A stretch of DNA of 61,062 nucleotides, the filler included, from Dugesia japonica (Eukaryota): NCBI GenBank assembly GCA_001938525.1. It is 6 parts of 6 records of this genome, joined end to end, with 100 filler letters (N's around TTAATTAATTAA, not from the genome) between each part and the next. Parts side by side here need not be neighbours in the genome. Positions count along the whole stretch, not along the records: positions 17,635 to 25,972 come from MQRL01632850.1; 5 more parts are not named here. One strand, 5' to 3'. How positions within the stretch are numbered: position 1 is the stretch's first letter; every line of letters begins with the position of its first letter. The translations under genes were made by a program, and so were the position numbers. The notes beneath the pieces were generated by a model. That model saw only the letters and a program-made list of their open reading frames with translations. It was not told where the DNA came from and searched no databases. Positions 8,871-52,541 of the stretch are shown one piece after another.

Positions 8871-9041
8871 ATTTTGTTGGCCATGTACCAGGATCCGTGT
8901 AGTCGTATTCTAATGTTAATTTATTTTCACATTCCTTATTATTTTCATTTAAAGGGGCTTCAGCATCCATAAAAGATTCCCGATTCTCTGTAATGCANNN
9001 NNNNNNNNNNNNNNNNNNNNNNNNNNNNNNNNNNNNNNNNN

Positions 9042-9053
9042 TTAATTAATTAA
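9042..9053. other. Artificial contig-joining linker TTAATTAATTAA in a 100-nt N spacer (also 17579-17590, 26017-26028, 37130-37141, 51528-51539)
   Basis: Identical 12-mer with stops in all six frames, flanked by about 44 N on each side, five times. Confidence 0.95.
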
Positions 9054-9099
9054 NNNNNNNNNNNNNNNNNNNNNNNNNNNNNNNNNNNNNNNNNNNNGA

Positions 9100-17047: not shown

Positions 17048-17827
17048 GTTGAGATTTTATATTTAATAATATATTAACATAGTATATAATTTATGATTTA
17101 ATCTCATATAGATTTAAAATTTTAATTTTTGATGTAAATATGGAATTGTAAATGTCTATAATTTTGTTTTCTAATAATCTTTAAGATATTTATTGGGTTG
17201 TCTGGAAATTTCGTTTCGATTTGTAATGAAAATTCCAAAGTAACAGATTTACAGAGTTTTACATTTTTATATTAACAATTTTGCATTTTAATATTAACAA
17301 TTTTATAGATTAAAATATTATCAATTATTTTATTTTATTACCACATCCATATGACAAGAAAACAAAGAAAGGAAATTACTAAAAAAAACTTATGATTAAT
17401 ATCAAACGAAAAATGACTTCAGGAGTGTTAGACTTGGAAAACGAATTAAGCATAAAATATATATTCTAAACACAAAATGACATTGTAACAAATATTTATA
17501 GCTTTTGAAGAATCAGTTATGCAATAATGTCTGANNNNNNNNNNNNNNNNNNNNNNNNNNNNNNNNNNNNNNNNNNNNTTAATTAATTAANNNNNNNNNN
17601 NNNNNNNNNNNNNNNNNNNNNNNNNNNNNNNNNNCTTTATTTCTTTAATAATTTTGTTTTCATTACTTAAAAAATATTATTATTAAATTATTATTATTTA
17701 TTAAAAAATAAAAATCATTAAAATTTAAAATTAAAAGTATAAAAAAATTAACCAATAAAATTTCGATGAAATTTGAAGAATTAAGTAACAAAGATCTATT
17801 GTATTGAATATCTCAAGAAGCCAACAT

Positions 17828-17862: not shown

Positions 17863-20800
17863 CTTGTTACAAATAAATTTTATTTTGATCGAAGCCTTTT
17901 CTTATTTTTATGAAACATTTATACAAATTATAAATAATAATAGATATTCCTTGTTTTATTGACATTCTTCATTTCGATCACTTTGACTTATTTGCTGAGC
18001 ACATTTTACCTTAGCCATCTAATTCTTAATTATCTTCAATTATTGTATATTTTAATATTTAATCCATTTTTCGTTTTCTCGACAGCTTTTTACAACTTTA
18101 TTTTCTTTTTATTGTTTTATCCTAGATTTTGTTCGATATTTCTTACANTTTTAACTTCAGTTATTATTATTTTATAATCATTTCCTGATTATTTCATAGA
18201 TTAATATTTCTTTTATTTCTTATTATTTTCTTATTCATTTTCTTATTAACCTTTAATTTATTTCCTTCACTGTTTTTCATATTTCACAAAAGGCTGTTTC
18301 AGCCCAACAGGCTTGTTAATATTTATAATTAGTTAATTTACATTATTTATATTTTCAATACTAAATATGAGATTAATTGCTGATGTAATTGAATAAGTGA
18401 TATCTATATTCATATCAAATGGTTCATAATTATCTAAATTAATGTAAAATAATGTTTTGTTTTCGACTTTATAATAATATTTCTTTTTTATTTTTAAAAA
18501 GTTTTACAAGAGTATTTTCAATTAATGGGGGTTTAGTTGTTATTACTGTTTTATGTATGTTTTTTAAGACTTTTAATGTAAGAATTGTAGTTGAGTTAAT
18601 GTGTTGGGGTGAAACACCTGCTCTGAGAAGAAAAACAATGCGAATTGTTCAAACCAGAGAAATAACGAAGGGCGGGAGTAGAAAAGAAGGTTAATTAGAA
18701 ATATGTGACAAACATACCAAATAAAAAGAATAAAAAGAGTGGAAGAAAGGTAAACGCCAAATGAATCAAACCCTGACCAATAACAATAATTAAATAAAAT
18801 TAAAATTTAGTTAGAAGAAACAAGAAAATAATTGTTTGGAAAATAATTAATTAGACCAAAAATATTAATTAATTTTGAACAAAAAATAAATTAAAATTAG
18901 ACAATAAACTGTTTTTGGAAGATAGCGATGCTCAGGGAGATCACATAGACTTGCGATAAGAAAATTCGAAAACGTAAGGATCAGGGGCAATAAGATCTCA
19001 CAATTAGGAAACGTTAACATCATCAGGAAAGCCTGGGGAAGGTTTCGAAGATTAAGCCAATCATACCAGAAAAAGAAAATCAAACAAAGCTACAAAAATC
19101 ACATGGCGATTTAAAAATAGGTACCAATGAAAACTCTAAAACTCTCTGAAAAAATCTGAAAATTGGCACCATCGCAAATCAGAAGCAAGAAGTTTGAATT
19201 AAAAATAGAAATCTAATGGCGATGATGCCGAGTTGAATCGGCAAATCATATATAAACCCCCCAAATTTTAGATGTAATTACCCTCAAATTGTGAGAATTG
19301 TTAGTTATTATAACAACGTGATATTAATTTTCTCGAAAAAACGTTTGTGAAAAAACTCTCAGCAATTCACTATCACGATAAAAAGTGTAAGGCAGAAATC
19401 TCTGTCAATTATTTTTCATTTTGAACTTACTATGTAATTGTAGAAGAAAAATACTTTGTCGGTAAAACAGACAAAACTAATCGAAAAGCAGAAATCCCCA
19501 TTAAATTTAGTTGGAATTGATTCGTATTTTGTTTAAGCCCATTGCAGAAAGAATTAAGAAAAAGTGAGTAGCAGTTTATTTCTGATTATGTTATGTGATG
19601 ATTGGATCAATTAATAAAATTTGTTCAATATAAAATTGTCAATTAAACTTTATTTACAGGAAATTAGTGCTGTAATTTCAGTGAATCGATACCCAGTTAA
19701 TTTTGTCAACCTTATCAATGATTTTTATCATGAATCAGCCCATAATAATTGACATACCTTTACGTTAAGAAACTATTCACCATTCTCATAAGAAAATACC
19801 CTCTTTAATCAATGCCAAAATACACCTACAGCAAACCCATATTTTTAAACAGTGACTAATGCATTACTTTGAATTATGTGACAAACACTCCAACTCGCTA
19901 ACAGAAGTTATAAACACTCCAGTTAGTATGTACCTGTTATGCAATCCGTCAGCAACATCATGAGTAGCACTCGATGCATGTCTACAAGTGACTGTTTCCC
20001 TAATATAATGTTAATCAGGTAAAATGTGACCCGAACGGTATCGATAAAGGAATATAGTATCAGTATTACAACACCACATATACAAGCAATTGGATGATGA
20101 TTTGTTAATAATTATTGTTGGCATTACTGACCCACTCTCTAATAGTACTCAACTTGAATATTGCACTTTTGACGCTTTAATTGACTAATTGATCTTACTT
20201 TCACGTTGAATTTCGTGTTATTTTCCAATCAAGAATTCAACGATGATAAGTAGTACTGCTAACCTTACCATTACTATTATTATCATTATTCAGNTACTAC
20301 GATCGTTATCATCGCGGATATTAAAACTAGTATAATCGTTAATAACCTAATTAATATTGTTTTATTTATTATTCATTATTATTATCAATCGTAACATTAG
20401 TATCATCAAAATTCACAGCTAACATTATTATAATTATTAACACCCGCAATATCATTACGATCGCTAATCATTAACATTATTATTTTTATAAAAAATTTAC
20501 TAATGACATCGTTATTGTCCTATTTGGTATTAGCATTTTCATTATTATTAGCAATCGTTATCATTATTACTATTAATTTTATTATAGTTATCACTAAATA
20601 TTATTATTATTACTACTCGTATCATTATTAAAATTGTCGTTATGGTTAGGGTTAAAATAATTATCATTATTCTTATTAATATCACTGTTATTACTTTTAT
20701 TATTATTGTTATTTTTAATAAAATTATTAATTCTTTGTTACTACGAATTGTCGTTAGCTATACCGTCATTTCTAGTCGTGCTAATACATTAAGTTTTCTT

Positions 20801-20875
20801 TTGATCAGCGGTTTAAATATTTCAAGTGACAGCCGCAATTTTGTATTGTGATTTAGAATTCCAGTTTCAGTTGCG

Positions 20876-21060
20876 ATGATTGATCTCTTGATAAGGACTT
20901 TAAGATTGATTCGCAGAGAGAAGCGAAAGGCTCGACGGAAGCAACTCCTAGCCCACGTTCTCTCCAGGGGTGCCATTGAACACCATGACTAAACAGATTT
21001 GCGGTGTTTCGTTGAGATTTCCCCTTGGAGTATCCAGTTTATATAGACGGTGAGAAATGA
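20876..21060 (+). pseudogene. LTR cassette A (copy 1): small basic protein
   Basis: MIDLLIRTLRLIRREKRKARRKQLLAHVL....HD*TDLRCF aligns with the 52356 ORF MSDILSQTLKFICSERERVRRKQLIGPIL....PDKTDLRWF. Confidence 0.7.
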
Positions 21061-21174
21061 TCGCTAACTTTGTCACACTGTGTTTTGAATTAAATATATA
21101 TTATTTGACTGCTCTTTTACTTTTATGGATATTAACATATTACCGTTATGATTTTTCTTTATTTCAGTAGGCAA

Positions 21175-21580
21175 ATGGAATAGAAGTGGAAAACACTTCT
21201 TGATCGGCGCACGAGTAGGGTGATATTTAAAAGGTATCGAAATCCCATGATCGAAATGCTGGAGTACTGACAGACTACTCTAACTTGTCTAAGGAAGATG
21301 GGACGCTGCCGAATGCAGGGCCTTCTATGAATGGAATGGACCCGACCGGTCACAAGATGTGCTCTACACGGCTATCGCGTTTTCCCCAATTAATAATGAA
21401 GAGATCAGTACGACCAGTGAATGCAGATAAGGCCCTTCCGTGATTCTCATCTCGGCGGCTCATCTACCACCCTTCTCTAGATTGAGAGCCTTCATCAGTG
21501 ACACTCTTTGGGAGTTACGAAATACAGCGGGCGTTAGTAATAGCGAGAATGCCGACACCGCAACTGATAATAATTACTGA
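21175..21580 (+). pseudogene. LTR cassette B (copy 1)
   Basis: WKTLLDRRTSRVIF..HDRNAGVLTDYSNLS...RAFISDTLWELR aligns with the 52660 frame ERVLDRRTRRMIF..HNKDAGILADRTNLS...REFVTNLLWGIR. Acceptor tttcag ends 21167; AATAAA at 21623. Confidence 0.7.
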
Positions 21581-21784
21581 TTCTGTATATGGACTCCAGG
21601 ATTTTGTGTGTCGCTTAGTAATAATAAATTATAGGCATCTTATTTGTTGTAATTTTAAATTTTAGTCCAATCTTTCTTAATTAATTAATGTAACCAATTT
21701 TCGGCATAATGTTTTTCATAAGATCTTTTTGTTGGTATTTTTCACATTTCTTAATCTAAAGTTCAGTAATGTCTCTCTTTACAG

Positions 21785-22143
21785 TGCATTCTTTGCTAAA
21801 TAGACTAGCAGCTCTGACCAAGAAGGTAAGGGAAACCAGTGAAGACATCGAGATGTCTTGGAAACTCTATAGGTTAGCGAAGCGCAGATGGGAAGCTGAA
21901 ACGGCCTCAGCAAACGCTAAGGTAAAAAGGTACAAAGCCCAGTGCATCTCCTTTAAAAAAGAAGCTGAAGTGTCCCACTCACAAGAGAGATTTTAAAAAT
22001 CACAAGTCGAATCCATCGCCAAAATCATCCGGTCCCTGCATGACCCTCAAAATAAACTGGTCGCCGATGTTTTGACCTTGAGGAAGGCAATACCCCTCAA
22101 ACCCGTGATGGTTGACAAGGGTACCCAAACATCACGCCTTTGA
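21785..22143 (+). pseudogene. LTR cassette C (copy 1): coiled-coil protein ending in DKGTQT
   Basis: 44/70 identical residues to ORF 53265 by hand alignment; one in-frame TAA where copy 2 has TGG; acceptor tttacag|TG; AATAAA at 22167. Confidence 0.8.
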
Positions 22144-22281
22144 ATGATTAGAACTTGTAAATTATAAATAAAATTCTCTAATTAATTAGTCTTGTTTCAT
22201 GTGCTTATGTTTGTTATAAGAATTCCTTATGTAATCATTACTTGTAGCAATCCGATTATTGCTTAATCTCACTTTATTTCA

Positions 22282-22647
22282 ATGCCACATATCCGGTTCC
22301 TCTCTAGTCTGCGCAGATCCCATAGACTTATCCAGAAACTCCTGCTGGAACGCCATCTAAAACAACAAACTGAACGCGCTTTGCTTCATCACTTGGCGCA
22401 ACGTAATCGATTAATTAAAAAGCTTGATTTGATCGTAAAGAAACAAGAAGAGTCAAATAAACGCACCCAAAAGATTCTCACCAATAAGATCGTTTTCCTC
22501 AAAATATACATCGCCGATCTAGCTACTTGCCTAGAAATTGAGCAATGGTCGCCTTGTCGCAGTGAAGATGATGAGGCAGCATTTGATATGATGGACGACG
22601 AACCCTCCTAATGGCTTGATTCGGGGGCAGTCGGTTTAATAGAATAA
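22282..22647 (+). CDS. LTR cassette D (copy 1): basic N-terminus, coiled coil, acidic tail
   Basis: 109-aa ORF to 22611, with homology continuing past the stop to 22647. Shares LIVKK..E...RT..IL.NKI.FL..YI.DL and DDEAAFD...EP with 53768-54130. Confidence 0.75.
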
Positions 22648-25049
22648 ATTTCTTTTAAAACAATGTTTTAAATTTTGTTTTGGTTTTAGCAAAGGAAAAC
22701 TAATGAACTCAAATATAAAAGTATGCGAGTGTGAACCTCAAATATAGGCTGGAGGTCAACCGTCCATACCGAAAACCTAATAAGGGACATTAGATAAATT
22801 CTTAAAAAGGTCCCCTGAGGGCTGTTTTTCCCCATCCGTGTTTTTATACCACAAACTCAGTTGGGACCCCAACAAATGCATCGGTTAATATTGAAGTTTC
22901 GTTTTTTCAGACAAGTCTTTATTATTGTATTTGTTCTGTTCTTTAGCTAATTGTTTTAATAAAGCTCTTCTATCATCGTACATTTTTAAGCAGTTATTTG
23001 TTTTAATATTTTAAACTAAACAACAATCTATTATGCAGGTCTCGTGTAAATGCCTATTCCATGTTTTGCTTCTTTTATTTTTAGTATTTTGTCTAATATT
23101 AATTTCCTTCCTATTTCATTAATAGCTAACTTTACTGAATTTGGTAAACATGATTTATTAATTAAATTATTTATAAAATCATAAACTATTTTGCTTTGAT
23201 AAGGATTTAAATAAATACCTTTGCATTTAAAAGGTTTTAAAGCTTAAGCATTTCAATTAGCTACCTATTTTAACTACCTTAATTCTTCTTCAATTGTTTT
23301 TCTTTCTAAATCTGTCTTTTTTGCTTTTTCAGCTTTTGAAACAGCACTTTCAACTCCAGCAGCAATACCAGCTACACTAGATAATCTCCCACTTATTGCA
23401 GGACTTAATGATAGTAATGACAATATTCCGCCTTCCTTAATCTCTTCATTGTTATTGTTTGTTTAACTTTTTACCTACCTAATATTTTTTTTGTTTATTA
23501 AAACTTATTTAGATTTATTAAAATGAATTAGTTCACTTAATTGTTCTTCAGTAAGAGAATGAGTAAGAAAATTAGTAACGAATTATTAATTTGAAATAAA
23601 AATAAAACACTATTTAATAATTAAGTTTTACCAAATATTTTTACATGATTATTTATGGAGTCATCTGGTATTGGAAAGAATTTATTATTAATGAAAATGT
23701 TATTAGATGATGATTTAATGGATTATAATAATTTAATATTTTATTCAACAGCTATAAACCAAATTGAATTACAAATAATTAAAAGAAGGAATTGAAAATG
23801 AGTTAACTAAGAAAGCAATTAGAAATATATTTAAGAAAAAAGATTGAATAACAGAAGAAAAAAATACTCCATACAATATTGCTGAATTGTATAAAGAAAA
23901 TATAAATGAATCTGATATTGAAGATAAAGATGAGTATGTTATATATGATTATGATAATAAAAGTAAAACTTGTTAGGTTTATTTATTGGTTTCATTAAAA
24001 TAAACTAAAATAAGACTTTTCATTCAATACTTTATTTAAAATACAAATAATTCTTCTTTGAAATTCTTCTTGCTTTTTGAACGCTTCTTTTCCACACTTG
24101 CCTTTCCCAATTTATATTTTTAAATAATAATAAACTTAAACAAATTTATTATATTTATCAAAAATATATTTTGCAAACATAAAACTTTCGAATTTAAAAT
24201 AATTTAAAAAGAAACCGATAAATAAATATTTTTATAAAGCTTTAAAATTACATTTCAAATTTACATTTAACAATTTAAATTAATAAACATTGATTTTAAT
24301 AAAAACCTAATTGCATTAAATTTTAAAAATATTAAAAAATTTACGAATTACTAAAATTATCTAAAATATTTATATTTATATTTAAGAATATATTTAAAAA
24401 TCAAGATAGAATAATAGAAGAAATAAATAATCCTTATAATATTGCTGAATGGTATAAAGAAAATATAAATGAATCTGATATTGAAAATAAATATGATTAT
24501 GTTATAGATGATCATGATAATGAAAATAAAATTAATAGTAGCTTTTCTAATAAACCAGAATATACTATCTATTGTGATAATCTATAATAAAAGAATCTAG
24601 TTATATCTGATCATGTAAATATTAAAAATCAAGATATACAGTAATCATATTTCACTAGAGGTAGATATAATAACTGTAATGTAATTTATATATCTCAAAC
24701 TTATTATGCTTTAGATAAAATTTCATTTAAAAAACAATTTTAATTGTTTTATATTTTTCAAATAGTGGAAATAAAGATATGGTTTATCAAGATTTAATTA
24801 GTAATTTAGAACCAGATAAATTGTCATAAGATAATTTTATTAGAAATGATTAAAAAGATAAATAAAATTACTAGGATAATCTTTTTTAACCTTAAAAAAA
24901 ACATTTGACTTTATCTGACCAATATCTTGACTTTATACTGGAAATTTTTAAATTTATGTTTCGTCTTATAAACAATTAAATCTGCTTAATAGTCTTAAAA
25001 TTTAAGAAAATTGTGCTTTGTAAATGCAAAATATATCAATTATAACTGA

Positions 25050-25972: not shown

Positions 25973-26287
25973 NNNNNNNNNNNNNNNNNNNNNNNNNNNN
26001 NNNNNNNNNNNNNNNNTTAATTAATTAANNNNNNNNNNNNNNNNNNNNNNNNNNNNNNNNNNNNNNNNNNNNCAAATCACTTCTTATATTAATGTTAAAA
26101 CATAAAGTTAAAAACATAAAGTAAAAGTAAAGTTAAAACATTAAAAGAAAATTAATTTAATCAATAATTATTAATTATTATTTTAAATAAAAGTAAAACT
26201 CATGAAAAAAAAAAGTTTAATTATTATAATTTTCGTTAATTATAATAATTATTGATAATTTGCTAATTACGTAATCTCTAAAGCAGC

Positions 26288-27113
26288 AGGGTTCCANNNN
26301 NNNNNNNNNNNNNNTCCAGGAACACTTTGTAAATATATTTCCAAAAAAATCTTTATAAATATTTTTCGATTCTATTCGAATTCAATTTAAAATTATTTGT
26401 TGATTCCATTGATATTGACTTTAAAAAATGCATTTCCATTCTACTTTGTATGACTCAATTCCATTTCATTTTAATTAACTTTATCAGTACAAAGTATTGT
26501 TATACTACAGTTCTTATTAATATATAAAATTGGCAGGATATTCAAATTCTAAGATTTTAGTATTTGAGAGTTCCGTCAAAAATAGGTAAGATATCATCTC
26601 TACTTCGTCATGAAAGTTTTGAAATAAATCGTGGAAACTGTGCGTCTATAGCCTTAGACGGCTGGAAGAACACTGTTATTGGAGATAAGCACATTTCTAT
26701 AATTCTTTTTTTGTGATGAGCCTGTTTTCATTCAAAGCCATATCGTAGAGTAAGTCTCAGCAGAAAATATTTGTTTTCTTATTGAAGAAACATTAGAATT
26801 CCTTGATTAATATGGTATTATTGTTATTGGGGCAATAACTGATAATATCCGAAATATGATTTCCGCAGTGAACAAATTAAATAGTAAAAGGCCTACAATA
26901 CCGCCATTGAGATGTGTGTCTTATGTCTGCAATCAGATGGTTAAAGATCTTTATAGAAATATTATTTGTTTAAAAGTTACTTTCAAAATACTAAAAGAAT
27001 ATATAAATGAACGAAAAATTTCAAGATTTTTAGCCATTTTGATAAAATGAAAAAAAGAATATCCCAATAATGATCATCTCGGAAAAATCAACATGGCTGT
27101 TGTTTATCTAAAG
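26288..27113 (+). mobile_element. hAT (DUF659-type) transposase relic
   Basis: IALDGWKN..., IVIGAITDNIRNM (TDNAxNM) and LRCVSYVCNQMVKD (CxAHxLNL); CAGGGTTCC terminus at 26288. Confidence 0.75.
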
Positions 27114-30639: not shown

Positions 30640-31230
30640 CCTCATTCAAAATATTGTTCATTACTGTACACTACTTTTTCCCATCTTTCTAGTGAATGGT
30701 AGATTTCACGGCGAAATAAAACAACATCTTTTGAGTCTATCCACGATACGAAAATTTTTTGGTATCCTCATAGAAATGCAAGTGCTGCTCATATAAGGCA
30801 AGTGTGACACAATGTGTCATCGATCGGAATAGAGTGAAATCTGTAGGTGCAATATTTAGGAAATACGATGGATGTGGTTTAACTTCTTAGTTAAGTACTT
30901 CTAACGTGTTCTTGAAAATTTATTCAGTATGTGAACAAGCATTGTAGTACTGTAAAATTACTTTGTCTTGCCTTTTCTTGTAATCTGGCCGTTTCTCCTT
31001 TAATGATCTGCTTAATTGCATTAATTTATGTTTGTACAATTCCGCAATGATGGTTTTGTTAGGTTTGTGGAGTTCATAATATACTACCGAAACATAGTCC
31101 TACCGAATGTAAAGTATCAGTTTGGTACCATGAATATTTGGCTATACAATAGATTTTAATAGTTTGTCTGGCCTACTTTGTATTATGGAATAGTATCCTT
31201 TTCTTATCACCTGTTAATAATAGGCTGTTA
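30640..31230 (-). pseudogene. Mariner transposase relic
   Basis: TGDKKRILFHN, PNIHGTKL, VVYYELHKPNKTI, LKEKRP..KRQDKVILQYYNA, HPSYFLNIAPTDF.LFRSM. Confidence 0.85.
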
Positions 31231-34519: not shown

Positions 34520-35330
34520 TGGTAAGGTTATTCTGAAGGTCTTCTATATTCTCCAAAGACCGCCCTCAAAGAAAGTATTCCATCACTCAAAACAGATTAA
34601 AATAAAGCGGCACAAGGTATGGTAAGTATGATGGATGCGGAAATATCTCAATTCCTTTAAGACAGTTTCCGTTGATTTTCGTAAGAAAATCTCTATTTCT
34701 AACAAAACTTTCTTTTGGTTGATTAAATGAAAATATTTTGCTTTCATAAATTTGTGAACTCTTTCTAACTGCGTTGTGAAAATATTGAAGCTTATACTTT
34801 GATCATAAAGTAGACGTTTGAAAACAAGGATACCATCATAATTCCAAAAAACAAAAATCATGTCATTTTTCAAATTGAATGACTTTAGTATAAAAAGTAA
34901 GTGATTCATTTGAGAATAGACATTACCTATTATTTGTTGAGATTGCTTAACAACATACAACTTTGTTTATTGCAATAACTCTTTCAAAATACCGTTTGTC
35001 CAATGGATTATTCAATAACATTTTACATATTTAAAGCTGTTTGGTCGCCTGAACTTCCTCCAGTCCAAAAATACATTCTAGGAGCTCTATATATTTTATC
35101 AATTGTTTGCAGATGGCAATGAATGGTTGATTTTGAAGATTTAAGGCTATTGCACTGTAGTCACAACTATTTGATGAAATTGCACACTAGTCGACTTGAC
35201 TTGTAGAGAAAGGTGAATCGGATTCTATATACTCTTGCTGCAGCTTCTTATAATTGAGACCGTTTATTAGAGTCTGGTTTGCATTTGAAGGTTGTGTCAT
35301 CGTTGTTTAACTTAACAAANNNNNNNNNNN
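34520..35330 (-). pseudogene. Mariner transposase relic
   Basis: VFWNYDGILVF..L, QLERVH..MKAKY.HLINQKKVLL, HPSYLPYLVP.YFNLF (HPPYSPDLAPSDFHLF). Confidence 0.75.
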
Positions 35331-37075: not shown

Positions 37076-37185
37076 ATATATATATNNNNNNNNNNNNNNN
37101 NNNNNNNNNNNNNNNNNNNNNNNNNNNNNTTAATTAATTAANNNNNNNNNNNNNNNNNNNNNNNNNNNNNNNNNNNNNNNNNNNN

Positions 37186-39695
37186 TTAAACCAGCTTCTT
37201 TTATACGTTTCAAAACATTGTCAATTCTCTTATAGTGTTCTTTAATAGTTTCGGAAAAACTAAAATATCATCTAAGTAAACCCCTGCTTCCTTCCAATTT
37301 AATGGACCTAAAACCTTATTCATCAATTTTTGAAAAGTAGCAGGGGCAGCTGCGATTCTAAAGGGCATTCTATTAAAATAATATTGTGCACCTTTTGTCG
37401 AAAATGCAGTTTTACATTTTGAGTCATCTGTTAATTCTACTTGATAGTAAGCATTACNNNNNNNNNNNNNNNNNNNNNNNNNNNNNNNNNNNNNNNNNNN
37501 NNNNATTTCTTCAGTGTTTGGAATAGGAAAAATTGGTCTTTCTGTAACTTCATTTAACAATCTATACTCTAAGCAAAGTCGTATTTCATCATTGTCTCCT
37601 TTTTTTACGCAAACCAAAGGAGCATTCCAAGGGAAGTCACATTTACTTATAATTCCATTTATTTCCATTTCTTTTATATTTATCTCAATTTTATCTATTA
37701 AATGATAAGGTTGACGCCTATGATTTATTGCAATTGGTTTACAATTTGTTAATATTGCATGTCTTACAATATTAGTTTTTCCAATATCCCATTTATGTTT
37801 CATTATAATGCTTTCATATTTTTCTAAATTCGTCAAAATCATTTTATCTTTAATATTTTTAATTTTTAATGTTTTCGGTTTAAATTTAATTACATTAACA
37901 GATTCTTTATTAATGGTGAGTTTTATATTAAATTTATTCAATAGATTAATTCCACAAATAACATGTGGTGAGATTTCTTTAGCAACATAAAAACAAATAT
38001 TCTCCATTTTTTCATTAAGCTTTACATTTAAATATACTTTTCCTACACTTTTTTAAAGAACTATTATTCGCACATTTGACATTTATATCAGAATCAATTA
38101 TTGAAACATTTCCTATTCTATTTAATAATTCATATTTAATTACACTAATTTTAGCTCCAGTATCAAGTAAACATGATGTAACAATATTATTAATNNNNNN
38201 NNNNNNNNNNNNNNNNNNNNNNNNNNNNNNNNNNNNNNNNNNNNNNNNNNNNNNNNNNNNNNNNNNNNNNNNNNNNNNNNNNNNNNNNNNNNNNNNNNNN
38301 NNNNNNNNNNNNNNTTACAAAGTTATTTTTATTATCAACAATTATATCAAGCATAACATCATCACACAAATTATTTTCAAGCAATTCAGTATCATACACA
38401 CATTTACAATCATTATCAATCATAAAATTATTGCTCAAATCAAATCTTACATTTTTAATGAATCGCCCCGACAATTTCCTCTCTTGGAAGGGCTTTGGCT
38501 TTTCGGAATTGATCTGTCATAGTTCTGTCATCATCTGTCATCAAATCATCTGAATGTTCATTGTATGCTGCAACATTTTATTGACGATAATCTCTTTTCA
38601 TATCCCGAATCTCATAGCATTGATGTTTAAAATGTCCAGTTCTGTTACACTGGAAACATTTTACATTTGGACAATTAATTCTGACATGTCCTTCTTCTTT
38701 GAATGCCCAACATCGTTTAGATCTTTGTGGAAAATTATTTTCTGTTCTCTTAAATCCTCTTCCGTCAAAACGATTAATGGGTGCATTTGAATTAAAATAT
38801 CTTCTGGAATTCGAATATCGGTTTCTGTTGTTTTCCACTAAATTGTTCCTTTTAAATGTGACTGGTCGATTTGGCTGAAAATCATTAAATTTGGCAGTTG
38901 TTGCATAATTCTTCTTTTCGATTTAACTGCTGCAACATTGACTTCTAGATTAAGCTCCTTCTTGATACTGTACATTTTTGAAATAATATTTTTCATTTCT
39001 TCATTTGTTCTTGATACTCGAATTTTTATTTCTTTTTTAACATCTATATCTTCAACAGCATTTTGTAAAAGAAAACTGACCAGATTTTCATTTGTCAAGT
39101 TATGCCTGATTACATTCTCTGCAAGACGATCAATTTTGTTAAAAAACAAATTTATGGATTCGTTTCCTTTTCGATAATTTAATGCAGATAATAAATCTTT
39201 ACCGATATTTGCTGGTTCTTCAAAAGCTTTTCGGCATCTTTGGGCATAATCTTCAATTGAACCATCCATGGATTCATATCTTTTAACAGCATTTGAGGAA
39301 AGAAATGCTTTTATAAATGTTCTTTGAACAGGTCCTTGAGCCATTGTAAGCTCATAAAATCTTGCTATCTCGATTAAAAATTCTTCCACGCAGTCTCCAA
39401 TATCGAATGTATTTGGAGTTGGAACAAAGGAATTGAGCATATGCCCTTGGGTGGTCGCCATATTAGAAGTCTGTTTCATAACCATAATATTTATTAATAT
39501 GACAATATAAAAGGAGGAATAAATATATATGTAACTATGATTTGAGCAATCAACATACCTCAATCAGCAAACAAACATTGATCTGTTATGCAACACACAA
39601 AATATTTGAACTCTTTGTCAAATATTAATTATGCAGCATACAGTTTTAATAAGCCTTTATAATAAATATAAGATATCCTCACAGTAATTATGACA
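37186..39695 (-). mobile_element. Gypsy/Ty3 LTR retrotransposon, 5' half (LTR about 39461-39695, PBS, gag, protease, RT), truncated by contig join
   Basis: PBS TGGCGACCA overlapping the gag ATG; two CCHC-type knuckles (first degenerate; second CFQCNRTGHFKHQC); protease LLDTGA at about 38160; RT motifs WNAPLVCVKK, KTAFST, MPF.IAAAPATFQ, YLDD; frameshifts. Confidence 0.92.
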
Positions 39696-41346: not shown

Positions 41347-42048
41347 ATGGTTTCAAATGATCTGTTGATTTGTCCAAATAATCTTTGTAAAAAGGTTTTT
41401 AAAAATAAATCAGGATTATCAAGTCATATTAGATCAAATTGTTATCGTTTAGATAGAACAAGAATTATGTCTTGTGAAATTTGTAAAATATTTTTTATGA
41501 GAGGAAATAAACGAAAAACCCATTTCTATTTAAAGAAAAATAAAAAAATGGCTATTAAATCATTATTCGATGAATTACCTGGTGAAGAAGCAATTGAATA
41601 TTATCCAGAAATTCAGCGTATTTTTAGAATTTATAAAAACTATGAAATTAAATATTTAAAAGAAAATAAAGTTGAATTAACTAGAAATATTGAAGAGTTA
41701 GAAAGACCAGTAAAAATGATTAATGAATTTCAATTTGAAATCTTGCAAATTGAAACAAAGTATTTTAATTATGGAAAAAGGGTTTTTATTCAAATGAGTG
41801 TAAATAGTAATTATAATAAAGAAGTTAAAGAAATTAGAATTGCAAGTGAAGTTGAAGAAAAAGTTAATGATATTTTAAATCAACTTCAAAGATTTATTGA
41901 AGCTGAATTTGGGTGGAATTTAAATTATATTGTTTATTTTAAAATTAAACTTTCAACTCATAAACAGATTAATGAATTAAAAACCGTTGGTAATAAAAAA
42001 TTATATTATCTTTATGATGATTTTATAGGACCCTTTTGGTTTGTTTGA
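41347..42048 (+). CDS. C2H2-zinc-finger protein with a C-terminal segment resembling the GSGW region of Polinton PolB N-termini
   Basis: CPNNLCKKVFKNKSGLSSHIR; FIEAEFGWNLNYIVYFKIKL. Confidence 0.55.
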   Translation: MVSNDLLICPNNLCKKVFKNKSGLSSHIRSNCYRLDRTRIMSCEICKIFFMRGNKRKTHFYLKKNKKMAIKSLFDELPGEEAIEYYPEIQRIFRIYKNYEIKYLKENKVELTRNIEELERPVKMINEFQFEILQIETKYFNYGKRVFIQMSVNSNYNKEVKEIRIASEVEEKVNDILNQLQRFIEAEFGWNLNYIVYFKIKLSTHKQINELKTVGNKKLYYLYDDFIGPFWFV

Positions 42049-42173
42049 ATTTTTATTTGAAGAGTATTTTATACTTGTTTTAAATTCTACGAACAACAGA
42101 ATATAGAAGTTTGAAGGATGAGTATAAAGAAACCTGTAAAGATTGGGGATTTTTTATTATTTATTATTAGAAA

Positions 42174-43180
42174 ATGGAAACAACAAAAATTAATCTTAAT
42201 AATAATATTAATTTTCAACATTTATTTTTGATAAATGATGTTTTGAGAATTTCACCCTCATCTGGAACAATTAATAATTTAATGTCTTCTGGAGATATAA
42301 CTTTTCAATCTTCAAATCCATTAGACATTTATAATTCAATGTTATATTTTAAAGTTAAATTAGAATTTGGTGCGGCTAACGCTCATAAAGATAAAATAAA
42401 TTTAGAAAATAATTGGTTTCCAAGTTTATTCAAAACAATGAGATTAACTTTAGGATCTTCAGATGAAGAAATAATTAATGATCCAGGAATTTCATCAACT
42501 GCTACTTTAAAATTAATGAATCTAGAACTACATATCCCAGAATGTAGATTAGTTAAAAAAATGGAAGTAAATCTTTTAGAAAGAATTAACACAAATAAAT
42601 CTATTCAAGTTTCATTTTTAAATAGAATTACNNNNAAAACAACTTTAGATTCAGGAAATTATTATTCAGTTAAACTGAGTAATTTAACTTATAAACCAAG
42701 ATATATATTTATTGAAATAAAAGATTCGGAAATTTCATATCAAAAGAATAATAATTTATTTATTCAACAAAATAGTAAAACTGTAAAAATAAAAGAAGGG
42801 ACTGTTGAAAAAGAAGTTACAACAAAACATTATCTTAAAAGTATTCAAGTACAATTAAACAATACATATTATTTTATAAATGAATGTAAATTTAATATTA
42901 ATAATAATGAAATGATTTTTCCATAGTTAAATTATGTAAATTGTTGTAAAGACTTTTTAACAGAACCACAATTATCTCTTTAAGAATTTTGGGATTTGTA
43001 TCCAATCTTTTGTTCTGATGTTAGTTCCCAGGATCATAAATTAAATATAAATACTGTAGATATAACTTTACATATAACTAAAGATACTGATTTTAAACGG
43101 TATTTATGTTAGTGTATTTTAGAAGAAAAACATATTGAAATGAAATTATCAAATAGTAAAATTGTAATGATTGAAAATAA
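42174..43180 (+). pseudogene. Double-jelly-roll major capsid protein (hexon-like), apparently internally deleted
   Basis: LENNWFPSLF..MRL, LELHIP, KPRYIFI, LKSIQVQLNNTYY and, past the stop at 42926, EFWDLYPIFCSDVSSQ, typical of Polinton/adintovirus MCP. Confidence 0.75.
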
Positions 43181-43243
43181 ACGAGGTGACACTTTTTATT
43201 TAGAGTTTAAGTTTAAAAATAAAATATTTAGATTTTAAATAAA

Positions 43244-44521
43244 ATGGATAAAAATAAATATATTTTTGAAAATTGTAAGAAAATATTACTTAGAAAAAAT
43301 AAAGCTAGACATTTAAGAATTTGTTTAAAGAAAACTGGAGGTGATTTACAATCTTCTAAATTAACTTCAACAATTTTAAAACCATTTACTTGGGAAAAGT
43401 ATCCAGGTGAAAGACATTTGTTTAAACATAATTATACTGGCCCCGGAACAAGATTAGATTCTGAAGGTAAACCAAAACCTGGAGAAGAACCAATCAATAG
43501 AGTAGATGAAGCAGCTTTTAAACATGATTTATCTTATAAAAATGAAAATATTAGAGATAGACATTTAGCTNNNNNNNNNNNNNNNNNNNNNNNNNNNNNN
43601 NNNCCTAATCCTAGTATTTCAGAAAAAATACAAAGAAGTTTAGTAAAATTAGCAATGAAAGGTAAAATCGTTTTAGGTGCTGGCCCTATTATTAAAAGCA
43701 AAGAAAGTAATTTTCAAAATAAAGAAATATTAGCAAACGAACTTCACAAAGAATATAGAAAACCAAAATATTTTCTAAAAGTAACAATAAAAGAAAACAA
43801 TAATACTTAGGGTTGTGATATTATTGATATGGTTAAAAAATCAACTGTGGGTTTTAGATATATTTTAGTTTGTATTGATTTATATTCTAGATTTGGTTTT
43901 TGCATACCAATGAAAAATAAAAACCAAGAATCATTAAAAGATGCTTATGAAAATATATTTGAAGAAAATAATCGAATTCCTGATTATATCTGGTTTGACA
44001 AAGAATCAGCTATTAGATCAAAGTACTTTGATAAATGTATTAAAGAAAATGAAAATAATTTGTATCATACTGAAAACGAAGGTAAATCAGTTTTTGCTGA
44101 AAGATTTATTAGAACTCTAAAAAATAAAATGTGGAAAGATTTTACATTAACAGGAAACCAAAAATGGAATAAAAACTTGTTAGATAAAATTGTAAATGAT
44201 TATAATAATACAATTCATAGTTCTATAAAAACAACCCCAAAAGAAGCTAGTGAAAATCCAGAAAAAATAAAAGAAATAATCGAAGATCATAACCATGAAA
44301 ATGATTCAATATAATTTAAACAGAAATTTAAAATTGAAGATAGAGTTAGATTATTTAAATATAAATTTGAAAAAGGTTTTACAGCTAAATGGACAAGTGA
44401 AATATTTGTTGTAACAAAAGTACATAAAACAAAACCATTTACTTATGAAATTAGTGATTTAGAAAACGAAAAGATCTTGGATAAATTTTATAATAATGAA
44501 CTTCAGAAAACTGTTTTATAA
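43244..44521 (+). pseudogene. Parvovirus-type phospholipase A2 domain fused in frame to rve (DDE) integrase
   Basis: HNYTGPGT (Ca loop), PINRVDEAAFKHDLSY (HD catalytic); same frame continues to ANELHK..NNT*GCDIIDM, CIDLYSRF, IWFDKES, AERFIRTLK, YNNTIHSSIK, FEKGFTAKWTSEIF; two nonsense codons (43808, 44312). Confidence 0.88.
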
Positions 44522-45018
44522 ATTTAAAATTAATAAATTAAAATGAGTGAGCCTGAAGGAACCCATTCTTTTGATTTTCTTTTTAAAGGTGTTTTAAATG
44601 AAGAAACAAAAAAAGCTTTAAAAGAAGATATTAAACAAGAATTAGAAGAAGAAATTAAACAAGAATTAAAAGAAGAAAATAAATACTTAAAGAAAACACT
44701 ATCACCCATCAATAAAAAAACTCCACCGGAATATTTTTGGAAGTGGATAATTGTATGTCATCTGAAGAAGGATATGAAGAAATAGCAATATTAACCAACT
44801 ATTTTAAAAATTTTGATTTTGCTAATATGGATCGATATAGTATAGGTATTTTTGATTTAATAGTAATTAAACTAAAAGATGAATGTATGAGGGGTTCTAT
44901 AGATCTCTTCGATGTAAAAGAATTCTTTGATAAAAAAATAANNNNNNNNNNNNNNNNNNNNNNNNNNNNNNNNNNNNNNNNNNNNNNNNNNAAATCTTAA
45001 TTTTTTTATTAAATAAAA

Positions 45019-45741
45019 ATGTCTCAATTAATCGGTAAAACTTCAACATTGTTAATTTGGAATAAAAATAAAATATCTTTAATAATAAAATCTTTCCCTC
45101 TAATTTTACATTATTAATAATTGGTTCTTCTGGATCTGGTAAAAATGTTTTATTAATGAAAATGTTATTAACTCCTAGTTTTTTAGATTATGATACTTTG
45201 ATAATTTATTCTACAACTATAAATCAATTTGAATTACAATTACTTTATCATGGTTTTGAAAATGGATTAACAAAAGAAGATATTATTTTTATTTTTGAAC
45301 ATCAAAATATAATTTCAAATTCTTTAATATTCCCATTAGAAAAATGTTTCCATAAAAATACTCAAGATAAATACTTGGGATAAATTATCTAAGGATAAAA
45401 AGAATTTTATAGTTTTCGATGATGTTGTTAATGAAAAAAATCAAGACGTTCAAACAAGTTATTTTACTAGAGGAAGACGTGTAAATTGCAACGTAATTTA
45501 TATTTCACAAACTTATTTCAGTTTGGATAAAAACTCTATTAGAAATAATTCCAACTGTTTTATATTTTTTAAATTAAATAAAACTGATAAAGATAATGCT
45601 TATTATGATTTATTTAGTAATATATTTTCAAGTAAAATGGAATATGATTATGAAGTTAATTTACATTGGAAAACAAAGTATAATTATTACTATTTAGATA
45701 GAGAAGCTGGAGTTTTAATGGAAGATTTATTTGAAGAGTGA
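45019..45741 (+). pseudogene. A32/FtsK-like genome packaging ATPase
   Basis: Walker A IIGSSGSGKN (about 45118), Walker B IVFDD, RGRRVNCNVIYISQTYF, SIRNNSN; frameshifts. Confidence 0.88.
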
Positions 45742-45858
45742 AAATATCCCACTGGGAAACTGTGGTATTCTACTTCAACTTCAACTTTATGTTAAAATCT
45801 TATATCATTTCTTTTTCTTAAATAATATAATTTTTGGTATATTATTTTTACAAATAAA

Positions 45859-46405
45859 ATGTCTTCAAGAATTAATTGATTTGATAAATTCAAAGAAATT
45901 TAAATCTGTAAAAATTAAAGGAAACAACTATTGGATTGGAAATAAAGTTAAAGAAGAACTAAAAAAGAAAATGACAACTAGTAAAGAACATGAAGGTGGA
46001 TTTGCTTTCCTCGCAGCAATACCAGCTATAATTGCTGGTTTAGCTTCTACAGCTGGAATTGCAACTGGAATTACATCAACTATTAATAATTCAAGAGATG
46101 CAATTAAAAAGCAAAAAGAAACCGAATTAGTAGAATTACAGAAAAAAGAATTTATTGACATTCATGACCAAAGGGAATTAGAAAATAAAATTAAAAAAGA
46201 AAATGAAATTGAATTATTAGATAAAGATATTGCTTAAAAGAAACAAGGAAGTGGACTTTACTTAAAACCTTATTAAGGAAGTTCAATTCATAAATATTTA
46301 AAAAATATTTTAGATAATTCAGAATTGAAAATGATAACTAAAAACTTTAAGAAAGGAGTACAAGTTAAAATAAAAGGTGATGGTTTATATTTAAAACCTT
46401 TTTAA
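45859..46405 (+). pseudogene. Polinton core/membrane-penetration-like protein
   Basis: EGG followed by amphipathic FAFLAAIPAIIAGLASTAGIATGI; downstream GSGLYLKPY and GDGLYLKPF repeats past stops. Confidence 0.65.
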
Positions 46406-47150
46406 AATGGATAGTGAACAAATAACAGAAAGAATAAAACTTTTGAAAGATTTAATTAAAGCTCAAGATAATTATGATAATTTATGTACTGGTAATGTAA
46501 TTGAATCAAGAACTTTACAAAATACTTGAACTATTCAACAACAACCTACTATTAAAGCAATTGAAAATCCCAGAGGGTCCCATACAAACTCATTTGAAAA
46601 AAGAATACCATTCTTTCCTAAAATTAATTTAAATATTAAAAATTTATCATCATTAATTACACCAACATTTGAAATAGAAAATATTGATAATAAAAACTTT
46701 CTAAAGATAAGTTATCNNNNNNNNNNNNTATATTTATTTGAAGAAGATGGAAAGAAATACTTTTTATCTAAAGAAGAAGTAATACCATATTCTAAAGAAG
46801 TAACGAATTTAATTTTGGGAAATGGAAGTAATGATTCAGAAGCAATTGATATTTATTTAAAAAAATTAAAGATTATATTTCCTACTAATTCTAAATATCG
46901 TGATTTATTAACTAGGAAAAAAGAAGTCAATTATTATTAAACCAAGAGTTAATTACTCAAGAAAAATATAATGTTTATAAAAATAAATACTAAAAATAAA
47001 TTTAATTTTACTAAAAAAGAATTATTTTATCTTTCAATAAATATTAACCAAATTTTAGAGAAACATAAACCAATAGAAAGAATTACTTTAATTTTACCAG
47101 CAAATATTTATATTGATAATATTACAATTTCAAATTAATCTTTTAAGAAA

Positions 47151-49964
47151 ATGTCTGAGTTTGAAGAGAATTAACTAACACAAACGAAGAGTGAGAATCA
47201 AAATCCCAAAGGGTCCCATAAATATCCTGATTTAAACGAATATATTTATTCATATTTTGAATATGCAATTAAAAATCAAAAAAACACTATAGAAGATTTA
47301 ACCCTTAACCGCCCAGAAAGCTTTTTATACCAAAACCACCCAGTAGTGTCTAACAGATACTACATAGAAAATCATTTAAATTATAAAAAAAAATAATAAA
47401 ATTTATTTTTATTACAGAGAAGAACACTGTTTGCATTGAATGTTTTTGTAGAATGTTCAAGACAAACATTTTGATTACATGTATTACAACATTGTTTTGA
47501 ATTCCTTGCAATTTTACACGGGCATATGTGACACCTTTTTTTTTACTGCGGATTCTTTTACGATTGAATCTTCAAACTGCTGTTGACTTGTACTTGCAAG
47601 CTGAACTCAGTTAACCCTTTTTTCTCTCGTCTCTGAATGTGAGGACTGACTAATTCGGCTGCTATTTATCGTAGAAAACGTTTTTTCTGTGCTCTTTTCT
47701 TTCCTTCTTTCCATCTAGGATACAATCGTTTTCATATTACAAAAGATGCAATCCTAACAATATCAAGCATATTTTGTAAAAACGCTACGGGCCATCTATT
47801 TGTTTTGTGGCGAGTTGAGTATTCATGTGCTAACTGATCCATTGTATCAACACCACCTTTTGTTTTATTATAATAAATATTAATTTCCGATATTTTTTTG
47901 TTGTTAGCATCAAATTGATTGCTATGGTGCATAGTAGATCATAAAATAACAGCTCTGTTCTTTTTTGGAACATTTGAAACTAAGGTTATTTTTTCAGAAT
48001 CCAAAGATATTAGTTTCAATATTCTGTCCTCTAATTGGCTGAAAATTGTATGGAATACAGCGTTTTTTTTTCTAAGAGTACCGACCATTGTCAGACCATT
48101 ATGAAGTAATGATTGTGCAATCTCAAAGCTTGTAAAATAGTTATCAAATGTAATATTTCTATGCGTTTCATAATATGGTTCACATAATGTAAGTACAACA
48201 TGATGAGATAAATTTTCTGTCTTACTCTGTTCAAGTTTTCCAAGGTATGGTAAACCAGCAAGAGGATAACTTGTTTCACTATCACAAATACACCATACCT
48301 TCATACCATACTTGTCAGGCTTAGATAGCAAGTATTGTTTAAATGATACTCTGCCTTTGAAAGAAATAAGTTGTTCGTCAATCGATAAGTTTTCACCAGG
48401 TAAATAGAACTTTTGAAGCTTAATATTGATATCGGTCAAAATATCTCTGATAGGCACCAATTTATCTTTTGATCTTCTTTGAGACTTTGTAGCTTTATTA
48501 TCAAATCTTAAAAAACGTTGGATATCCGCAAATCTATCTTTACCCATTGTAGCACGAAAAATAGGACAACCAAGCATTAAATCCCAATATTCTGTGAAAT
48601 CCACATTATTATGTTTGTTGACAGCACTAGCAATTAGTAAACCAAAAAATGCTTGCAGCTCAATGGCATCTATTTGNNNNNNNNNNNNNNNNNNNNNNNN
48701 NNNNNNNNNNNNNNNNNNNNNNNNNNNNNNNNNNNNNNNNNNNNNNNNNNNNNNNNNNNNNNNNNNNNNNNNNNNNNNNNNNNNNNNNNNNNNNNNNNNN
48801 NNNNNNNNNNNNNNNNNNNNNNNNNNNNNNNNNNNNNNNNNNNNNNNNNNNNNNNNNNNNNNNNNNNNNNNNNNNNNNNNNNNNNNTTACCTAAATATTG
48901 GACAATTGATTTTGAAACATGTTTCTCTTCTGTTGGGAAATATTCATTGTCACTGCATGTTTGTTCATCACTTTTCTCTGATCCAACCTCTGTAAAATTG
49001 TCTTCAATCTCACTTTCTACTTCTGGGATAAAATCTTGGTTGTCACTGTCAGAATTATCATCATGATTTAAGTCCTGTAATACAGTTAGCAGCTCCTTCT
49101 CAGTTACTACCATATTATTAATAATTTCTAAATGTCTAAATTATTTGATGTTAAGTAATAAGATTTGACTTACATTTTTTACAATATTTATTGAAATTAT
49201 ACTTATAGTTATTTGTGTAAGTAAATTACATCACCAAGATTATTTTATTACTGTTAACCTTATAACACTATATGTTGTGTCTATCAGACACACCTAGGTC
49301 TTTGTGTCACATTTATAACCTTTTAATAATTGCAAAAGTAATAATTTGATTTAAATGACTTCAATTAGTAATTTTGGTTGACAAGACTGTAGTAATAAAT
49401 TAGATGAAGTTTACTTTGTATACATTCAAAACTTTAGATGTACTATGAAAACGAAATTTAAAAAGTGCCTCTGAGTCACTACTGGTCGGTTAAGGGTTAA
49501 AAGAAAAATTATCAGACTTAAGAATTGTTGATTTTGAATCAGATCTTTATTTCATTGATGATAAAATTAACTATTATAAAAAGATTTATAAAAGATGGTC
49601 ACGATTAGATACCTCGATTAGATTTACTGAAATATTTATTGTAACAGTTGTTAGAATAACTGGCATTATATTAATTTCTTTAGAAACCTTTGATGTAGGA
49701 GGATTAATTCCAATTATTTTAACAAGTGTAGTTTCTTGTATTCTAGTAATTGGTACTTTGAATTCATCTTTAATAAAAGCAAAAAAGAATAACTATAAAA
49801 ATTTAATTCATGAATTAGAAACTGTTAAAAATAAGTTATTTTTATTCCAACAAAAAACTTTAAGTGATGGTCTTTTAACAGATGAAGAAATATCAATAAG
49901 CAAAAATATGGTAAAACAAGTAAAAGATTTAATTTCCCATGAAAAATTGAAAATGATTTATTAA
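47151..49964 (+). pseudogene. Two-TM Polinton/adintovirus protein (gasderminX-like), interrupted by piggyBac
   Basis: Removing 47302-49500 restores one frame: ...KYPDLNE..IEDLKEKLSDLR..YYKKIYKRW..TM-TM..KTLSDGLLTDEEI (one early stop near the start). Confidence 0.7.
47302..49496 (-). mobile_element. Full-length (2195-bp) but frameshifted piggyBac transposon
   Basis: TTAA TSDs at 47298-47301 and 49497-49500; 15-bp TIRs CCCTTAACCGCCCAG / CCCTTAACCGACCAG; transposase motifs IDEQL, KPDKYGMK, TFDNYFTS, YNKTKGGVDTMDQ, RWP and a Cys-rich tail. Confidence 0.96.
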
Positions 49965-50049
49965 AAAAACTTGAAGAACAAATCGAAAATCAACAGAAAA
50001 TAATAAATAAATTAAAGAGCTAACTCAAACGAAGAGGAAATGAATTGAT

Positions 50050-50358
50050 TGTGCCCACGGGCACAGGTTTTATATATTTACATTTTAGAAACTGGTGACT
50101 GCAGTAACCACTTTTAGAAATTAACTCAAGCGTTAACCGCTTTTGATTTAAAATTTTTAGATTTAAGAAACTGGTGACTGCAGTAACCACTTTATATTTT
50201 AAGATAAGAATTNGCGAACCANGGTTCGTTTTTTTAATTTTATATTAGAATAAGTAAGAAATAATTTCTATTTTGAATTCCTCATTTTTACCCTTTAAAA
50301 TCCCAGAGGGTTCCATCCTCACAAATTACAATTTAGAAACTGGTGACCGCGGTAACCA
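50050..50358. repeat. Cluster of short palindromes between convergent Polinton genes
   Basis: TGGTGACTGCAGTAACCA x2 (50093, 50172), TGGTGACCGCGGTAACCA (50341), TGTGCCC-AC-GGGCACA (50050), CGAACC-AN-GGTTCG, AAGCG-TTAAC-CGCTT. Confidence 0.85.
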
Positions 50359-50419
50359 CTTTTTTATTTTTATATTAAATTACAATTTAATTTTTGTTTT
50401 AATTTATCTAACCTTAAAT

Positions 50420-52355: not shown

Positions 52356-52541
52356 ATGTCAGACATCTTAAGTCAAACTTTAAAATTCATTTGTAGTGAA
52401 AGGGAACGGGTTCGGCGAAAGCAACTGATCGGTCCTATTTTAGCACCATATCGGATTCTGTCGCCTGACAAAACCGATCTGCGATGGTTTGAAGATTTAT
52501 TCCCACTCCAAACTAATGCTGACTTAGATCAGACATATTGA
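52356..52541 (+). CDS. LTR cassette A (copy 2)
   Basis: Acceptor ttttag ends 52345, ATG 52356, stop 52541, AATAAA 52562; homologous to 20876. Confidence 0.7.
   Translation: MSDILSQTLKFICSERERVRRKQLIGPILAPYRILSPDKTDLRWFEDLFPLQTNADLDQTY

Follow-up and report, generated by a model that had tools for sequence, protein, structure and literature searches.

This study deals with a 4273-bp repeat at positions 18602-22874 of a 61,062-nt stretch of Dugesia japonica DNA (assembly GCA_001938525.1), hereafter the window, whose coordinates are used throughout. On balance, we favour the view that this element is a decayed solo long terminal repeat (LTR) of an old, high-copy Gypsy-like family, and that it carries four accessory genes (cassettes A to D) as alternative last exons, an architecture that had been put forward in an original prediction from the sequence alone. 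A second, diverged copy of the element (copy 2) lies in the same window at 52346-54375. It is almost certain that the cassettes were once coding, and it appears likely that they are alternative last exons joined by splicing in cis.

The coding nature of the cassettes emerges from the comparison of the two copies. The four islands are richer in GC than their AT-rich spacers, as had been predicted (43-46% vs 24-27% in the element, and 40-46% vs 19-27% across both copies), and they recur in the same order in copy 2, for which a span of 52356-54130 had been given: A, C and D align, and B matches in patches, namely two short blocks and a weak tail. The amino-acid identity between the copies amounts to 43% for A (49 codons), 58% for C (113 codons) and 58% for D (96 codons, plus an 11-codon head); these matches lie far above 300 shuffles, and for each of the three cassettes the plus-strand frame scores highest of the six. 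Cassette nucleotides are about 60-66% identical to copy 2, and in the 300 aligned codons that were pooled the differences at positions 1, 2 and 3 number 107, 72 and 181, with proportions of synonymous (pS) and non-synonymous differences (pN) of 0.83 and 0.27, respectively (Fisher p 1e-47). The spacers do not align between the copies above shuffles (z-scores of 0.1, 0.2 and 0.9). This sequence pattern indicates purifying selection on the cassettes, with synonymous sites saturated while the proteins were kept. Because synonymous saturation and protein conservation are found together with unalignable spacers, the element and copy 2 are best read as two old subfamilies in which the four proteins were all retained, in an unchanged order. 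Later on, both insertions decayed: in the element, A carries an in-frame stop at 20990, B carries stops at 21181 and 21428 together with frame changes, C carries a stop at 21994, and D is open; in copy 2, A (61 amino acids) and C are open, and B and D are broken. The four open reading frames (ORFs) that had been postulated hence hold as formerly coding, selected and collinear genes, with A, B and C interrupted in the studied copy; at the position given for B, the ATG at 21175 is followed by the stop at 21181.

The signals around the cassettes are arranged in the same way in both copies. A poly(A) hexamer of the form A(A/T)TAAA follows 10-43 nt past each of the eight stops and reads AATAAA in seven, which agrees with the predicted distance of about 50 nt; the background frequency is 0.29 per 50-nt window (0.08-0.46 in shuffled spacers). 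In both copies, a pyrimidine-rich splice acceptor opens each cassette at the matching place. A plain score of pyrimidine content does not single these acceptors out: among the 112 YAG sites of the element, ranks 4 and 6 go to those of B and C, and among the 60 of copy 2, ranks 3, 5, 9 and 12 go to those of D, A, C and B. What distinguishes them is that they coincide with the border of the conserved protein sequence. The pyrimidine tracts ending in AG had been anticipated correctly, apart from the tttcaATG at D, which turned out to be peculiar to the studied copy: site 22282 reads AA in the element, copy 2 and seven of seven contigs of sequencing run X1, which behaves as genomic DNA and may be the source sample, have the acceptor AG there, and the ATG is private to the studied copy.

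At several of these acceptors the exon begins with TG (written AG/TG, the slash marking the exon boundary), and this TG completes an in-frame codon (phase 1), namely in B of copy 2, in C of both copies and in D of copy 2; the seven X1 contigs that cover D all read AG/TG as well. Only 24 of the 329 acceptor-like YAG sites in the window precede TG, and the combination with the frame condition in three independent cassettes has a chance probability of about 1e-5, a figure calculated post hoc. The first in-frame methionine is residue 23 in C and lies beyond residue 100 in D. Conservation starts at residue 1, and since it begins at the acceptor without an early ATG, C and D need an upstream exon; an early ATG is lacking in B of copy 2 as well. 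Cassette A brings an ATG of its own and is in phase 1 behind both acceptors of the element and in phase 2 in copy 2; B reads AG/TA in the element, in phase 2.

Of all donors upstream of the cassettes, the one at 19564 scores highest on a matrix of general donor-site frequencies; it lies 315 nt past a TATA-like box at 19249, and the two ATGs in between each meet an immediate stop. It ends in A, so that joining it to an AG/TG acceptor would give A/TG. From our point of view, transcription would start behind the TATA-like box, and a non-coding leader would end in A at this donor; splicing to the acceptors of B, C or D would then create an in-frame A/TG start codon, A would use its own ATG, and cleavage at the hexamer that follows the selected cassette would yield one short mRNA per protein, with a hexamer in the conserved last 180 nt ending the full-length RNA. 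That the start codon is made at this very junction is a tentative proposal, to which we give a little less than an even chance. A small intron (donor 19387, acceptor 19547) and a 16-nt exon may additionally be present ahead of the donor (19387-19563), and this putative intron would excise an ATG-stop at 19432 from the leader.

One could also imagine that the same last exons of the LTR are joined to a coding first exon with its own phase-1 ATG, which would reside either in the internal part of the full element or within the LTR itself (e.g., up to the donor at 20019), the cassettes being expressed from the 3' LTR like sag of mouse mammary tumour virus (MMTV). The phase 1 found at B in copy 2, at C in both copies, at D in copy 2 and at both A acceptors of the element fits any phase-1 exon, most donors end in G, and the CAG/GTAAAA at 20019 is a good donor. 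However, the TG starts of the exons are left unexplained in this way, the left half of the element has no long frame (the longest stop-free stretch, 87 codons, is found in the ATT tract), the in-frame ATGs ahead of 20019 end in phase 2, and positions 19646-20180, with 1-4 contigs, are the least shared part of the element. We therefore regard a coding first exon as unlikely, albeit with a chance worth keeping in mind; with such an exon, a solo LTR would not have to be an expression unit.

The distances from each hexamer to the next acceptor (78-229 nt) resemble operon spacing and could suggest an operon-like unit that is resolved by spliced-leader trans-splicing. We consider this improbable, as an early ATG is missing from D, and in C the conservation already starts ahead of the first methionine. 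Moreover, flatworm leaders are described to end in AUG (PMC12582326) and would need phase 0, whereas the cassette exons are in phase 1.

Expression was assessed in three RNA runs (X2, X3 and X6) that bear the same species label as X1 and are tied to the host by this label; together with X1 they make up the four of 24 listed runs that were mapped, at 82% likeness and with 6-25% of each RNA run read, and none of the RNA runs is listed as containing the stretch. The reads on the element number 46, 181 and 33 of 10.5, 13.6 and 11.6 million, respectively, and fall mostly into the ATT tract; 91-96% of them run on into unlike sequence, and the cassette bins have depths of 0-1.4. In these samples, bulk expression of close relatives is thus disfavoured. 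As a test of the splicing model the runs are poor, because nothing but the label ties them to the host, a subfamily at the distance of copy 2 would be missed at 82% likeness and silencing is frequent, planarian LTR elements being described as often silenced (PMC8532177). One X1 contig has a joint that skips 21610-21766 with GT..AG ends; splicing was rejected here, since X1 behaves as DNA.

Several observations weigh against the architecture that we favour. In the three RNA runs, no joint from 19563 or 20018 to any acceptor is present among the 15 of 19 joints listed, and no pile of RNA ends or poly(A) site is seen on the barely covered element. A, B and C are broken in the studied copy, B of the element and A of copy 2 are in phase 2 instead of phase 1, and neither of the two contigs at 20869 has the second A acceptor. 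The donor at 19564 is seen in one copy only, donors with an A at position -1 are uncommon, higher scores are reached by two donors that lie within or directly past cassettes, and the AG/TG pattern was noticed post hoc. To reach the end of the LTR, a full-length RNA would need to read through four poly(A) signals. No copy flanked by a primer-binding site (PBS), a polypurine tract (PPT) or gag-pol is seen in the window or among the loose ends listed, and scans for the DNA pattern and the proteins recovered no element locus in viral or metagenome contigs. The predicted scheme of one leader and alternative terminal exons keeps its acceptors, stops and hexamers but gains neither a junction nor a poly(A) site from the three RNA runs, and the further claim that every solo LTR would remain an expression unit fails for the studied copy, whose cassettes A, B and C are interrupted and whose D lacks the acceptor seen in other copies.

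The assignment of the element to the LTRs relies on its ends. These read AATG, TGTTGGGGT...ACCCCAACA, AATG, exactly as predicted, i.e., 9-bp inverted termini of the TG..CA type within a 4-bp target-site duplication (TSD); the inverted repeat stops at 9 bp, with just 17 of the next 51 positions matching. By chance, such structures are not rare: the window holds five TG-starting 9-bp inverted pairs with a 4-bp TSD at spacings of 0.2-15 kb, the remaining four of which are AT-rich. We nevertheless trust the boundaries, because copy 2 fixes the right end independently (the last 181 nt are 77% identical and finish in the same terminus, CCCCAACA, at 54375) and a match like that of the 13-mer at the left end would arise by chance just 7e-5 times per 15 kb. 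In addition, both junctions are spanned by X1 contigs that show 3 and 1 differences, at a depth of about 5. The left part of copy 2 is not alignable to the element (z-score 1.0) and ends at the filler gap at 51484-51583.

Coverage by X1 shows that the element family is large, high-copy and unevenly conserved, the purpose for which summed depth, which is not an exact copy number, was solely used. Over the terminal 180 nt, 117 contigs reach a summed depth of 40,842 at 22808, with single-copy flanks at a depth of about 5; the block at 19055-19225 is matched by 66 contigs (summed depth 3,155 at 19176), the cassettes by 7-28 contigs at the positions listed (depth bins 165-1,367), and the least covered part, 19397-20251, has depth bins of 35-49. 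Within the terminal block, a TATAAA at 22714 aligns with an AATAAA at 54211 and is followed by a GT-rich stretch. In such a terminal position, the poly(A) signal of the LTR itself is expected. The most repeated part of the element holds a GGGAC/GTCCC stem followed by CTGAGGGCTG (22783-22818 and 54281-54316), which is invariant in both copies and hence uninformative; a hammerhead-like reading of this block was dropped, as Rfam gave no match at E<=1 and the GAAA half is lost in copy 2.

Taken together, the element has TG...CA ends with short inverted repeats, which follow the TGTNR pattern described for LTRs of the Gypsy type (PMC2836005), a TSD within the 4-6 bp range (AATG, seen in the one copy with both ends) and many dispersed copies, including the second one in the window. 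The candidate promoter motif at 19249 and the candidate poly(A) motifs at 22714 and 54211 would suit a U3-R-U5 order, no RNA ends being seen on the barely covered element. Self-BLAST detected no end-to-end or internal direct repeat in the element, and a non-autonomous LTR element of the LARD (large retrotransposon derivative) or TRIM (terminal-repeat retrotransposon in miniature) type was rejected for want of two direct terminal repeats. The sequence thus probably represents an LTR, "solo" being our deduction; the predicted Gypsy-type solo LTR is borne out by termini, TSD and high copy number, and a paired copy, PBS or PPT was not seen.

TGTNR ends and a 4-bp TSD are, however, also common to Ginger elements (PMC2836005), no paired copy was seen and the body resembles a small gene cluster, which would suit a complete non-autonomous element with four cargo genes that is moved by an integrase-type transposase, be it Ginger-like or undescribed. 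Against this speak the inverted repeats, given as about 40-270 bp for Ginger (PMC2836005) vs 9 bp here, the TSD AATG instead of CCGG/CCGT, and a site that is not RTATAY. An integrase-like transposase had no match in Pfam at E<=0.001 among the cassette frames scanned, the left half lacks a long frame, and the two ends are asymmetric: the block with the poly(A) signal and the GT-rich stretch lies 160 nt inside the right one, an LTR-like arrangement. We rate this transposon quite unlikely. Finally, hexamers (0.29 per 50 nt) and short inverted pairs (four others) are frequent enough in the window to raise the thought of a chance or assembly artefact, in which decayed, unrelated GC-island insertions met chance signals in AT-rich DNA; the collinearity of the two copies, the selection seen at the codon level and the contigs that independently cross both junctions largely refute it and make it barely credible.

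As to the products, AlphaFold models from two-sequence alignments predict a single long helix for C (residues 2-98) and D (residues 2-86), with a mean predicted local distance difference test score (pLDDT) of 85 for both and predicted template modelling scores (pTM) of 0.39 and 0.44; such modelled helices are typical of coiled coils and uninformative on function. The helix of C is followed by a tail ending in DKGTQT and that of D by an acidic tail. The eight frames checked (B middle and head excluded) contain no membrane segment, with a maximal 19-residue hydropathy of 1.32, and they show no signal or transmembrane segment as would mark an env-like accessory protein or one like short ORF 2 (sORF2) or the fusion-associated small transmembrane (FAST) proteins. 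Because the proteins are soluble by this measure, and C and D helical, they are most likely intracellular regulators or host-interaction factors and not envelope proteins or fusogens. Among the 122,120 codons of the six window frames, DKGTQT is the sole [KR]xTQT. LC8 is described to bind TQT motifs that lie in disordered tails beside coiled coils and to dimerise its partners in this way, Panoramix, a factor of piRNA silencing, among them (PMC7861614); by analogy, C could act on host silencing or transport, which we take as a lead only, because copy 2 reads DKSTPT at this place. Homologues were found neither for C and D in 5.8 billion proteins (near lengths only) nor in the alignment search with the B tail, and a combined C and D profile gave none at E<=0.001 among 1.84 billion representatives. 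The ESM Atlas returned three rows for C, at 0.92-0.93 with a low recognition score, and none for D. The cassette frames gave matches of E 0.04-0.06 in Pfam and PHROGs, the two databases to which the searches with A were confined, and none at E<=0.001; PDB sequences gave a best E of 0.57, and viral structures none at E<=0.001, single helices being uninformative queries.

Table 1. Coordinates of the element, its candidate signals and copy 2 (window numbering)
Feature	Position	Strand	Basis or remark
Left TSD AATG	18598-18601	+	sequence
Whole element, probable solo LTR, 4273 bp, TG...CA	18602-22874	+	9-bp inverted ends 18602-18610 / 22866-22874
Right TSD AATG	22875-22878	+	sequence
Block common to many copies, then TATA-like TATATAAA at 19249; candidate promoter	19055-19256	+	66 contigs at 19176
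Candidate common splice donor GTGAGT after a run of A	19564-19569	+	rank 3 of 194 GT in element
Second candidate donor CAG/GTAAAA	20019-20024	+	rank 5 of 194
Decayed (ATT)n tract between candidate leader and cassettes	20350-20729	.	sequence
Cassette A	20865-21094	+	acceptor 20864 or 20870, own ATG 20876, stop 21044-21046, ATTAAA 21089
Cassette B	21168-21628	+	acceptor 21167, stop 21578-21580, AATAAA 21623
Cassette C	21785-22172	+	AG/TG acceptor 21784, ~118 codons, stop 22141-22143, AATAAA 22167
Cassette D	22283-22648	+	open frame of 108 codons, stop 22609-22611, AATAAA 22643
Most conserved block, putative terminal poly(A) signal and U5	22694-22874	+	77% to copy 2, 117 contigs at 22808
Diverged copy 2, right half only, ends CCCCAACA	52346-54375	+	alignment to element
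Copy 2 acceptors	52345, 52659, 53265, 53767	+	matched to A-D
Copy 2 stops	52539, 52996, 53613, 54128	+	matched to A-D
Copy 2 AATAAA hexamers	52562, 53036, 53644, 54140	+	matched to A-D

The window as a whole is 74% AT and crowded with decayed mobile elements, and no host gene was recognised among the 19 + 111 frames scanned. A Maverick/Polinton (adintovirus-like) gene run at 41347-46940 (+) and 49494-50969 comprises a zinc-finger ORF, a phospholipase-A2-like domain, an rve integrase, an A32-like ATPase and probable capsid and polymerase pieces; it is interrupted by a piggyBac-like transposase at 47939-48886 (-), and between two of its ORFs the palindromic motif GAAACTGGTGAC..GTAACCAC occurs three times (50068-50114, 50147-50193 and about 50335-50360). 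A separate Gypsy fragment at 37210-39563 (-) holds a gag-like ORF, a CCHC knuckle, a protease and a reverse transcriptase, and its flanks have no similarity to the studied element. Mariner/Tc1 transposase fragments are located at 956-1267, 30923-31099 and 34583-34966, and a piece resembling DUF659, a hAT-associated domain, at 26811-27047. Five 100-nt gaps (a 12-base spacer with 44 N on either side) lie at 8998-9097, 17535-17634, 25973-26072, 37086-37185 and 51484-51583.

Coding sequence inside an LTR is known from sag of MMTV and the nef overlap of human immunodeficiency virus, in each case as a single ORF in the U3 of a vertebrate retroviral LTR of ~1 kb and not as an array of alternative last exons. 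Among planarian elements, Burro, reportedly described by Grohme et al. in 2018, is said to comprise giant Gypsy-like elements. Compared by description, the present element shares with Burro a very long LTR-sized unit, an AT-rich animal-like genome, thousands of copies and accessory coding, and differs in that the extra domains of Burro are described to belong to the polyprotein or to an accessory ORF of the internal region, and not to the LTR (PMC6431247); of these domains (BIR, RING, MATH, ankyrin and BCL2), none was found in A-D. The accessory ORFs of LTR retrotransposons are placed in the internal region in the descriptions at hand (PMC7264820, PMC5408684, PMC10309623, PMC11952523, PMC6431247). 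In Drosophila gypsy, the env start codon is described to be assembled by splicing AT to G (PMC2585583), and a Gypsy accessory gene with a spliced start codon is what our model would have in common with it; env, however, is one internal gene for a membrane glycoprotein with an AT/G junction (PMC2585583), whereas three to four soluble ORFs with their own poly(A) signals and a putative A/TG junction would lie in the terminal unit here. The sORF1 and sORF2 of the MDG1 group are likewise small tandem accessory ORFs near the 5' end, with a short transcript that ends at an alternative poly(A) site past sORF1, but no splicing was seen according to the description, the ORFs are two in number and sORF2 is transmembrane (PMC11952523), whereas A-D have no hydrophobic segment in the frames checked. 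Family-wide orphan ORFs under selection are also described as additional ORFs of plant (PMC7264820) and rotifer (PMC5408684) elements and of C. elegans Cer1 (PMC10309623), some of them spliced, coiled-coil or regulatory (CERV). Ginger1 and Ginger2 have TGTNR ends and a 4-bp TSD in common with the studied element and are set apart by long inverted repeats, a target preference and an integrase-like transposase (PMC2836005), none of which it has. Among the listings and abstract openings that full-text searches returned, no multi-gene LTR is described, and the Burro supplements, Repbase or Dfam may describe these LTRs, so that "undescribed" is a provisional status; with this proviso, we probably deal with an undescribed variant of the accessory-gene-bearing LTR retroelements, the mechanism of which we infer.

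Solo LTRs are regarded as non-coding remnants whose contribution is a promoter, and an LTR with four selected genes would, if true, be a gene-bearing unit, such that repeat masking would hide families of small orphan proteins. In its widest form, which is possible but which we hold to be rather doubtful, the LTR would be the four-gene switchboard of a widespread animal family, in which one promoter and an A-ending leader serve mutually exclusive, TG-starting last exons. The start codon would be written by the act of splicing, such that a cassette left unchosen could not be translated; as the unit lies entirely within the LTR, recombination would spread hundreds to thousands of accessory-gene units free of gag-pol, and C may act on host silencing or transport. 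It would also pose a problem for the retroelement cycle, as the full-length RNA has to pass four poly(A) signals and R is perhaps several kilobases long. If true, the family would provide a natural case of start-codon assembly as the selector among tandem genes.

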